From positions 11,904,001 through 11,968,000 of the forward strand of contig OX597839.1 of the NCBI GenBank assembly GCA_951406725.2: a stretch of DNA of 64,000 nt. Reading direction: 5' to 3'. The translations under genes were made by a program, and so were the position numbers. A model generated the notes under the pieces. The model saw only the letters and a list, made by a program, of their open reading frames with translations. It did no database searches and had not been told where the DNA came from. The stretch comes from Octopus vulgaris. Its lineage: Eukaryota. Positions 12,855 through 56,916 of this stretch are shown here, piece by piece. Within the stretch, counting starts at the first letter, position 1; each line of letters opens with the position of its first letter.

Positions 12855-13268
12855 CTTTATTTCTTTATTGCTCACAAGGGGCTAAGCATAGAAGGGACAA
12901 ACAAGGACAGACAAACGCATTAAGTCGATTACATCGACCCCAGTATGCAACTGGTACTTATTTAATCGACCTCGGAAGGATGAAAGGCAAAGTCGACCTC
13001 GACGGAATTTGAACTCAGAACATAACGGTAGACGAAATACCTATTTCTTTACTATCCACAAGGGGCTAAACACAGAGTGGACAAACAAGGACAGACACAT
13101 GGATTAAGTCGATTATATCGACCCAGTGCGTAACTGGTACTTATTTATTCGACCCCGAAAGGATGAAAGGCAAAGTCGACCTCGGCGGAATTTGAACTCA
13201 GAACGTAGCGGCAGGCGAAATACTGCTCAGCATTTCGCCCGGCGTGCTAACGTTTCTGCCAGCTCGCT
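12855..13268 (-). mobile_element. SINE family B, tandem partial dimer
   Basis: Full copy whose 3' end aaataggtattt runs directly into an internal cgtct... second copy. Confidence 0.9.
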
Positions 13269-20377: not shown

Positions 20378-20814
20378 GGATCTTTTCGGTTTGAACGGCA
20401 GTTTTTTAAAATAATTTCCACATAACTAAACATTTTAAAACTTCGTATACTGGTAGAATGTGTTTATAAAACATCTTTTTCTCTTGGCTTTATTGAGAAA
20501 ATTCTATAGTTTGTAAGATATTTGTTGTTGTTTTTCTTCAATTTCTGCAATTTCAACCAATCAATGACGTCTATTAAGGTGAAAACATTCTGTGCCGTCT
20601 GAAAATGTCCCTCGTTTAAGAAACAGATTGGGTTTATTTACATTTCTGAAGAAAAAAGATACCCTTCCCCCACCCCTAACCCTAATTAACCCTAACTCTT
20701 ACCCTAACCCTAAAACAGATTGAAATGCAATAGATCGATACTAGGGTCATAATTATGGGTAACAATTTCATATAACACCTCTAGAAAAAACTGCCGGTCA
20801 AACCGAAAAGATCC
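20378..20814. mobile_element. MITE with 30-bp TIRs and internal (CCCTAA)n
   Basis: GGATCTTTTCGGTTTGAACGGCAGTTTTTT / AAAAAACTGCCGGTCAAACCGAAAAGATCC. A second copy lies at 36524-36846. Confidence 0.9.
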
Positions 20815-27683: not shown

Positions 27684-28101
27684 AATACCTATTTCTTCAC
27701 TCCCCACAAGAGGCTACACACAGAGGGGACAAACAAGGACAGACAAACGGATTAAGTCAATTACATCGACCACAGTGCGTAACTGGTACTTATTTAATCG
27801 ACCCCGAAAGATGAAAGGCATAGTTGACCCCGACGGAATTTGAACTCAGAACGTAACGGCAGACGAAATACCTGTTTCTTTACTACCCACAAGGGGCTAA
27901 ACACAGAGAGGACAAACAAGGACAGACAAACGGATTAAGTCGATTATATCGACCCCAGTGCGTAACTGGTACTTATTTAATCGACCCCGAAAGATGAAAA
28001 GCATAGTCGACCTCGGCGGAATTTGAACTCAGAACGTAGCGGCAGACGAAAGACCGCTGAGCATTTCGCCCGGCGTGCTAACGTTTCTGCCAGCTCGCCG
28101 C
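27684..28101 (-). mobile_element. SINE family B tandem partial dimer with TSD
   Basis: Flanking repeat tgaatcaaag(g/a)gaat(a/g)cc. Confidence 0.9.
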
Positions 28102-30103: not shown

Positions 30104-30431
30104 GTTGTTTTAAGTTCAAAACGTTGCTTTTTTAGAAAACGAAAAAATAGTTTCACCATTCCATACCAGAACCGCTGTACTTCACTTTGACAATCCTTGA
30201 TACCTTAGTATCTGAAGCAGCTGGAGATACGATAGTTAGACCAAAACAACCGGTTATTGCAAGCAAAAATACATATTGAAAAAAAAAAAAAATTGGGACA
30301 TACGACTGTTTAACATAATAGCAACAATATATATATATATATATATAAAACTTATATATAAAATGTACAAAAGGGGACAAGAACGCAAACTACACAAAGA
30401 GACGACACAAAAAAACAGACAGGTCATTCGA

Positions 30432-30498
30432 AGCCTCTAATCTTCAGTCAGGAACCGGATCATCTTAGCAATTTCGGCTGATTAATACTGATATCGCT
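30432..30498 (-). ncRNA. Candidate non-circularly permuted hammerhead ribozyme in a PLE-like fragment (30345-30660)
   Basis: AGCGAU-A-UCAG ... AGCC-GAAA-UUGCU ... CUGA-CUGAAGA-uuaga-GGCU. Stem III 6 bp, stem I 4 bp, stem II 4 bp. Confidence 0.7.
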
Positions 30499-30839
30499 CC
30501 GATCCGGCCAGCCCCAAGGAAAAACTAAGCTGCGAGCATTAGATTTCTTGGAAAAAGGATCGAATGTATACGAAACAAAGACAGAAAACCGGACGATGCC
30601 ACACGAATATAAATACAAGAAACAAAAAATAAAAATAAAAATAAAAAACAAGACAGCGGGAGTCTTACGACTTCAGACAATTTAACTTATCTTGGCTGGC
30701 GTAATATATATATGTATAGACACACACACGATGAGTTAGTTCCCTTCAGTTCCCGTCAATCATAAGACATAAAAAGAGAATAAAATAAAATGAAACAAAC
30801 AGTGTCCTTAATAGAGGAGCAATTTACCTACGTTAGTTC

Positions 30840-45153: not shown

Positions 45154-45216
45154 ATCCCCTTCTTCAGTCGCTAAAGTTTCATCTACTAAACGTTTCGAAG
45201 GATAAAAGCGAGACGT
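45154..45216 (-). ncRNA. Candidate non-circularly permuted hammerhead ribozyme in a PLE-like fragment (44969-45335)
   Basis: ACGU-C-UCGCU-uuu-AUCCUUC-GAAA-CGU-(17 nt)-AGCGA-CUGAAGA-AGGGGAU. GUC triplet; all core nucleotides present. Confidence 0.75.
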
Positions 45217-45345
45217 ATACTTCGAATGAAAAATTCCTTCCTGCGAAAAGCAAATCAATTAAAATTCTGAGATCTTGTCGCAGAGGGTAAAAAGCAAGAC
45301 GGTAACGACAGTACAAACATATAAACAGTAAAAAATATGTATATA

Positions 45346-56742: not shown

Positions 56743-56859
56743 AATATAAAGTATATATTGCTATATATACATATGTGTGTGTGTGTGTGTGTGTGTTACC
56801 AATTTTGACCCTCCGCAAAATCCCAAATTATATTAAATTTGCTTTGCGGGTGCAACTGC

Positions 56860-56916
56860 TTTATCGAAAGGCTCGAAATACGAGAGTAAATAACTGCCAA
56901 CGACTGATGAAGGGTC
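56860..56916 (+). ncRNA. Decayed non-circularly permuted hammerhead in a PLE-like fragment (56800-57045)
   Basis: UA-UCG-aaa-GGCUC-GAAA ... CGA-CUGAUGA-A-GGGUC. Stem III is poorly paired. Confidence 0.55.

Follow-up and report, generated by a model that had tools for sequence, protein, structure and literature searches.

On the minus strand of the 64,000-nt window, the whole stretch of Octopus vulgaris DNA analysed here, positions 30498 to 30432 hold a motif in which the core letters of a hammerhead ribozyme, CUGANGA, GAAA and a NUH triplet, are all present, with GAAA at 30475-30472 and CUGAAGA at 30447-30441. Reading of the sequence confirmed the letters, coordinates and spacings given by an initial annotation, and the cut that it had predicted at 30492/30491 is likewise upheld, being set by the AUA triplet and accompanied by a pile-up of copy 5' ends. 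According to a three-helix descriptor that admits all six hammerhead block orders, the order at this site is not the circular C-G-S order of type I, II and III hammerheads. In S-G-C order the descriptor matches three times in the window, at 30432-30498, at 45157-45215 and weakly at 20573-20659, compared with a mean of 0.05 in 40 shuffled windows. The weak match, on the plus strand, has long linkers and no upstream stem II partner, and is probably a chance occurrence. Two features go beyond the initial annotation: a helix joining stems I and II (30508-30501 with 30461-30454) and a host retroelement (Table 1).

Table 1. Features of the ribozyme-like locus and of related copies in the window, with the basis of each assignment.
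Feature	Position	Strand	Basis or remark
5'-truncated copy of a non-coding tandem retroelement	30327..30703	-	unit ~826-837 nt; fixed 3' end leading into (TA)n
Stem II 5' strand, G10.1 at 30513, upstream of cut site	30509..30513	-	covariation
I-II bridging helix, 5' strand	30501..30508	-	compensatory changes between families A and B seen in alignment, outside the pair counter
Predicted kink-turn, unbulged side (G-A)	30498..30500	-	consensus match by eye; only G fixed in the regex
Stem III strand 16.x, U16.1 at 30493	30493..30497	-	U-A pair in 39/39
Predicted cleavage site after A17 of AUA	30491..30492	-	hammerhead analogy and 5'-end pile-up
Stem I strand 1.x; window copy with G>U at 30487	30486..30491	-	pair counts
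Stem II 3' strand, C11.1 at 30476	30476..30480	-	covariation
Core GAAA and stem III strand 15.x	30468..30475	-	letters, alignment
Predicted kink-turn, 3-nt bulge and G-A	30462..30467	-	consensus match; inferred fold
I-II bridging helix, 3' strand	30454..30461	-	family alignment
Stem I strand 2.x and core CUGAAGA; chain exits core after A9 (30441)	30441..30453	-	
Tail after A9, with GGCU; no conserved stem II partner	30432..30440	-	pair counts
Second family, same four-segment wiring; young, 833-837-nt tandem arrays	45157..45252 (outer ends approximate)	-	
Third family; copy without cut-site block	56845..56911 (outer ends approximate)	+	

The motif lies inside a dispersed repeat (30327-30703) whose 3' end is fixed and leads into (TA)n and whose 5' ends vary from copy to copy. 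A 28-nt piece of it has 948 exact matches in the genome and none in a reversed control. Tandem units measure 826 and 837 nt at loci L276 and L329, and the family at 45154 forms arrays of 833-837 nt; each non-coding unit carries one ribozyme, and no complex frame of at least 130 aa occurs among the frames listed for the units. The insertion traits seen comprise a (TA)n site, 5' truncation, tandem or inverted copies and a 3' tail, and inverted truncated copies and a short 3' extension also occur. Genome-wide, the pattern GAAA-before-CUGANGA has 12,999 matches versus 508 in the reversed control; the corresponding figures for the canonical-order pattern, which differs in strictness, are 3,232 and 1,643. 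Forty random 10-kb stretches held decayed copies and no strict descriptor match. Repeat finders run on the window returned mostly microsatellites, and two related 183-bp tandem dimers, at 12858-13223 and 27684-28055, represent another dispersed repeat.

A family alignment was built from the window copy and 38 copies hand-picked as untruncated from 101 pattern matches, giving 39 rows; the copies are related, and counts of paired cells are not independent events. Covariation was scored for stems I and II and the first pair of stem III, the remainder of which was read from the copies, as MAFFT shifts it between clades. With stem II drawn to a strand upstream of the cut site, the two stems and U16.1-A15.1 are paired in 94.4% of 427 cells in the 39 copies, whereas control registers obtained by sliding reach 28-50%; the covariation score is 0.716 versus 0.220 for shuffled alignments, and none of 500 shuffles scored as high. 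Both-sided changes occur in four of the five pairs of stem I and in four of the five of stem II. G10.1-C11.1 is kept in 38 of 39 rows, U16.1-A15.1 in every row, and H17 of the NUH triplet is other than G in 37 of 39 as parsed; the core letters formed part of the search pattern, and the cut-site block lay outside it. In every family the stem II partner is found 38-45 nt upstream of G12 and is Watson-Crick, examples being GGCUG/CAGCC, GAAGG/CCUUC, GAGCA/UGCUC, GAACG/CGUUC, GGCCU/AGGCC and GCCCA/UGGGC. A test that avoided hand-picking gave a concordant picture: among 96 unique pattern matches 41 keep the cut-site block, and an upstream partner of at least 5 bp is present in 27 of these and a downstream one in none, with 1, 1 and 0 in three control windows.

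The upstream stem II strand runs on into a bridging helix, whose other half immediately precedes the 3' strand of stem I. This helix measures 7-9 bp in the copies shown for families A, B and C and 4-7 bp in decayed copies of family D, and the alignment of families A and B displays compensatory changes in it by eye. The conserved order is therefore stem II 5' strand, I-II helix, cut site, GAAA, I-II helix, CUGANGA. As the 5' strand of stem II precedes the cut site in this order, the predicted chain is open at a single place, between A9 and G10.1, inside the catalytic core. All four helices are able to form within 75 nt of one unit. In each of the 22 copies examined for it, a helix closing both ends at A9/G10.1 failed to exceed shuffled sequences (p 0.095-0.995). 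These results sustain the earlier claim that the architecture is selected rather than chance, in that a non-circularly permuted hammerhead-type fold shows covariation across families that none of the 500 shuffles equals; they replace the proposed three-block C-B-A model by four segments with the chain opened between A9 and G10.1. The 5-nt insertion after the core invoked by that model was its weak point, since type SGC of Eckert allows at most 1-2 nt there, and it disappears once the stem II partner is recognised upstream at 30513-30509, outside the interval originally annotated.

Stem lengths also required adjustment. The 4 bp first given for stem I hold for the window copy, which carries G>U at 30487, but the stem I of the family has 6 bp; of the 6 bp assigned to stem III, five stand, and the sixth, an A-U pair, is lost in 33 of 47 scorable copies, namely the 47 of 94 family copies that fit a fixed-spacing regex. 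With its one stem I mutation the window copy may itself be weak or dead. The copy at 56845..56911 has lost about 17 nt including the cut site and is a dead copy; its relatives are intact. Within the same 47 copies a stem I A-C mismatch is found in 10, two compensated forms in 26 and 7, and singletons account for 4. The mismatch subfamily has been amplified (L251, L253, L257, L271, L275, L280 and others), offering a natural test of the amount of cleavage that the element requires.

In a kink-turn, two helices are separated by a 3-nt bulge and then tandem G-A/A-G pairs. This sequence consensus is matched by the loop that connects stem III with the bridge in the A/B clade and in Naiad_Ovul, and the GA on the bulge side of the putative kink-turn is kept in 45 of the 47 scorable copies; the C/D clade has a longer loop. 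There (L181, L198, L218) the loop has AGUA opposite GAA and resembles a bulged-G (loop E) motif.

The reading we favour, at a probability of about 0.72, is that of a retrozyme-like repeat without coding capacity; its RNA should adopt a hammerhead fold with the chain opened between A9 and G10.1, and self-cutting at 30492/30491 is likely. Covariation or sequence shows that stem II joins the upstream strand (30513-30509) to the strand before GAAA, that stem I joins the cut-site strand to the strand before CUGANGA, and that stem III and the I-II bridging helix pair in intact copies. A kink-turn between stem III and the bridge would turn the chain round towards the distal ends of stems I and II; A9 would stack on G10.1 across the break, from which the rest of the element would hang. 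One cut per unit of a tandem transcript, after A17, would release monomers of ~830 nt, whose ends would be kept together by stems II and III and the bridging helix and so be poised for ligation, with circularisation proceeding as described in parts of the retrozyme literature (PMC7229834; bioRxiv 10.64898/2026.07.22.740005). The reverse transcriptase (RT) and endonuclease of a Naiad, a Penelope-like element, would then copy such RNAs into (TA)n.

Self-cutting is something we infer from where genomic copies begin. The 5' ends were mapped for 94 copies, the first among the listed matches to the 3' 28-mer, a choice that selects only sequence downstream of the cut; for three reference copies among them the ends were BLAST values. 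Starts lie within 20 nt downstream of the predicted cut in 26 of the 94 copies and within 20 nt upstream in 4 (one-sided p=3e-5), and for three of these four, microsatellite microhomology leaves room for a start at the cut itself. Ends occur at 0.0175 per nt immediately downstream of the cut, at 0.0015 per nt over the 100 nt lying 50-149 nt upstream of C3, and at 0.006 per nt beyond. This skew fits templates that would begin at the cut. It should be noted that the starts do not peak at the cut itself; their peak is found 4-16 nt downstream, and reverse-transcriptase stalling may for this reason be a contributor. Taken further, the same observation leads to the view that the fold is real and does not cut, serving instead as a hammerhead-derived binding or priming signal for the Naiad enzyme, with copy starts produced by RT stalling. 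The amplification of the mismatch subfamily would agree with it, as would the impairment of natural hammerheads by small insertions elsewhere in the core, described in part of PMC3088659. A mere binding signal is nevertheless unlikely, as the core letters, U16.1-A15.1 and the NUH triplet are kept across families whose helices differ, and no copy starts 50-65 nt upstream of C3, immediately beyond the cut.

The choice of stem II strand bears on a second, quite unlikely possibility, in which the active form would be of type SGC, with stem II supplied by the strand that follows CUGANGA; the strand further upstream would then be a conserved inhibitor that sequesters the 11.x strand. Families A and F do have a 4-bp downstream partner, the C/D clade has a weaker, G-U-rich one after a 1-nt bulge, and Penelope hammerheads, in the relevant part of PMC4209133, typically carry a base between positions 9 and 10.1. 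The downstream GGCU helix, which the initial annotation had taken for a 4-bp stem II, is however paired in 40% of cells in the 39 copies, and 469 of 500 shuffles scored as high; the alternative downstream register of the C/D clade reaches 63%, with 62 of 500 shuffles as high, and, as noted above, 5 bp are attained in none of the 41 block-bearing matches. Sister family B keeps the strand before GAAA and has no partner for it after the core, and several other families lack one as well. The upstream helix, by contrast, begins with the invariant G10.1-C11.1, and its place in the order is that of the true stem II of Naiads with an intact core; these, read by eye, share the same circular order, which marks the upstream strand here as the true stem II strand.

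Assembly of the active ribozyme from two tandem units or two molecules, in the manner of minimal Penelope hammerheads, appears very improbable: the units do occur in tandem, and action as dimers is described for Penelope hammerheads in a section of PMC4209133, but a single unit accommodates all four helices, each of sufficient length, in 75 nt, and its stem III has the full 5 bp instead of a short palindrome. A chance match in a repeat-rich genome, to which one might ascribe the fact that the 81-nt motif folds no better than shuffles (z=0.08) and that a local Rfam scan of the site gave no hammerhead match, is refuted by the covariation and the pattern excess, and the pseudoknot-free folding model and Rfam cover neither crossing helices nor this strand order. 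On the whole window Rfam returned 523 matches, and the 150 listed are swamped by microsatellites.

The predicted hammerhead opened at A9/G10.1 acquires a context from Naiads. According to the parts of PMC8557442 used here, these elements encode an endonuclease and an RT and favour (TA)n, with tandem or inverted insertions and a tail of 30-40 bp; no canonical hammerheads were reported in them, and eight were flagged 'HHR_half_core', with half cores 35-50 nt apart, including Naiad_Ovul, which targets (TA)n. The 3' ends of 13 published Naiad consensus sequences (supplement of PMC8557442, consulted for these tails) were read by eye. The core-opened wiring is seen in four of the 13, Naiad_Ovul, Obim, Plae (an acanthocephalan) and Amil (a coral), and type CSG with an intact core in three, Naiad_Smim (spider), Hpol and 3_Nbra (nematodes), where the stem II strand directly follows CUGANGA and leads into the bridge. 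The displayed stretch of the other six (3_Dst, Omin, Esco, Parc, CGi and Mcor) contains no fold recognisable by eye. From the strand orders read by eye in these tails, the core-opened and intact-core forms are one circle of strands opened at different points, an independent identification of the upstream strand of the window motif as stem II. At the 3' end of Naiad_Amil, again by eye on the published consensus, an 8-bp helix joins the strand after A9 to the region upstream of G10.1, with a hairpin between; a closing helix of this kind is not supported in the families of the octopus genome.

The octopus genome contains 267 tails of Naiad_Ovul type, and its Naiad tails agree with those published for Octopus, which makes an octopus the likely host. 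Of 15 such loci retrieved, four satisfy the strict descriptor, and the 5' end of one Naiad-tail copy, L382, coincides precisely with its predicted cut site. The repeat and the Naiad_Ovul tail have their wiring in common and differ in sequence. Because none of the 15 retrieved tail loci showed the fold continuous with a Naiad RT frame, mobilisation by Naiads is proposed here from the target site, the shape of the insertions and the shared wiring. As candidate partners, 30 GIY-YIG loci were set aside, being Penelope elements with a C-terminal endonuclease and no permuted core downstream on their own strand; a tblastn search with one GIY-YIG frame found five loci, none of them shown to be continuous with a ribozyme copy. 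Elements of the L287/L299 type, Penelope-like and with a C-terminal GIY-YIG domain, include many open frames of 781 aa. In L287 and L299 themselves a hammerhead-like motif of canonical order, in which U3 and A8 replace C3 and G8, was noticed by eye about 100 nt before the 3' (TA)n; U3/A8 covariation of hammerheads is mentioned in the consulted portion of PMC3088659.

Comparison with described ribozymes places the element close to several systems. Eckert 2023 (PMC10085705, as far as its text was available) introduced the non-circularly permuted types SGC (HRIMA-1) and CSG, of which SGC was validated, from metatranscriptomes and metagenomes, none coming from genomes of known organisms, and stated as an assumption that CUGANGA stays joined to the stem II strand with at most 1-2 inserted nt. 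The C-B-A order of the initial annotation corresponds to this already described type SGC. The octopus element resembles types SGC and CSG in its non-circular order, its core letters and its crossing stems, as well as in the helix that links stems I and II at their distal sides. It differs in being opened at A9/G10.1, in residing in an animal retroelement and in its predicted kink-turn. It has the order S, G, C of type SGC but lacks the intact block C, with the stem II strand 0-2 nt after CUGANGA. With metazoan non-LTR retrozymes, as presented in sections of PMC7229834 and bioRxiv 10.64898/2026.07.22.740005, it shares non-coding tandem units, one ribozyme in each, and presumed Penelope-like movers. 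Those retrozymes carry type I hammerheads in mostly shorter units, ~170-400 nt according to Cervera and de la Pena 2020 (PMC7229834) and 51-972 bp according to Li, Clavereau and Pollet 2026 (bioRxiv 10.64898/2026.07.22.740005), in contrast to an element of ~830 nt that is not of type I; the accessible portions of both papers describe neither a permuted nor a core-opened form. Like Naiads as characterised in PMC8557442, the repeat combines a (TA)n target, tandem or inverted 5'-truncated insertions and a 3' tail with the wiring of four of their tails, but it lacks an endonuclease/RT frame. The minimal type I hammerheads of Penelope elements, in the part of PMC4209133 concerned with them, also have a core near the repeat end and a conserved G10.1-C11.1, and are distinguished by a circular order and a tiny palindromic stem III that needs dimers, whereas the octopus motif has a non-circular order and a complete stem III. 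Natural hammerheads in Perreault 2011 (PMC3088659, in the pages consulted) have only small core insertions. In the literature covered, which took in few subscription journals and only part of the supplements, no natural hammerhead opened at A9/G10.1 was found, nor, within the same coverage, a non-circular hammerhead permutation in an animal genome. The element would work like a hammerhead in a retrozyme and, going by its strand order, is outside type SGC as defined and outside the type I retrozymes.

It is intriguing to consider a broader interpretation, which we hold at somewhat better than even odds, in which, in several animal phyla, Naiads and their non-coding parasites would carry a whole family of self-cleaving hammerheads with non-circular permutations. 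One branch of this family would be opened at A9/G10.1 and braced by a kink-turn; the entire element would then form a loop outside the active site, and the monomer, once cut, would already be clamped for circularisation. If true, the number of topologies would rise above the six orders published so far, and the report of Naiads without hammerheads would be overturned. Published schemes, as set out in the relevant part of PMC10085705, recognise six strand orders and regard CUGANGA and the adjoining strand of stem II as a block that cannot be broken. An animal genome with over ten thousand copies of a core-opened form would extend these schemes, explain why descriptor and Rfam searches missed it and resolve the puzzle of the Naiad 'half core'. 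An RNA of ~75 nt would provide a direct test bed for the need of the A9-G10.1 link and for the role of ribozymes in Penelope-type transposition.

Two further observations concern the family as a whole. At L262, L277, L346, L357 and L361, back-to-back inverted arms are joined inside the ribozyme near GAAA. Sequencing runs labelled as four organisms all contain the family, and the two variant positions of stem I, 30451 and 30488, change with similar frequency in each.
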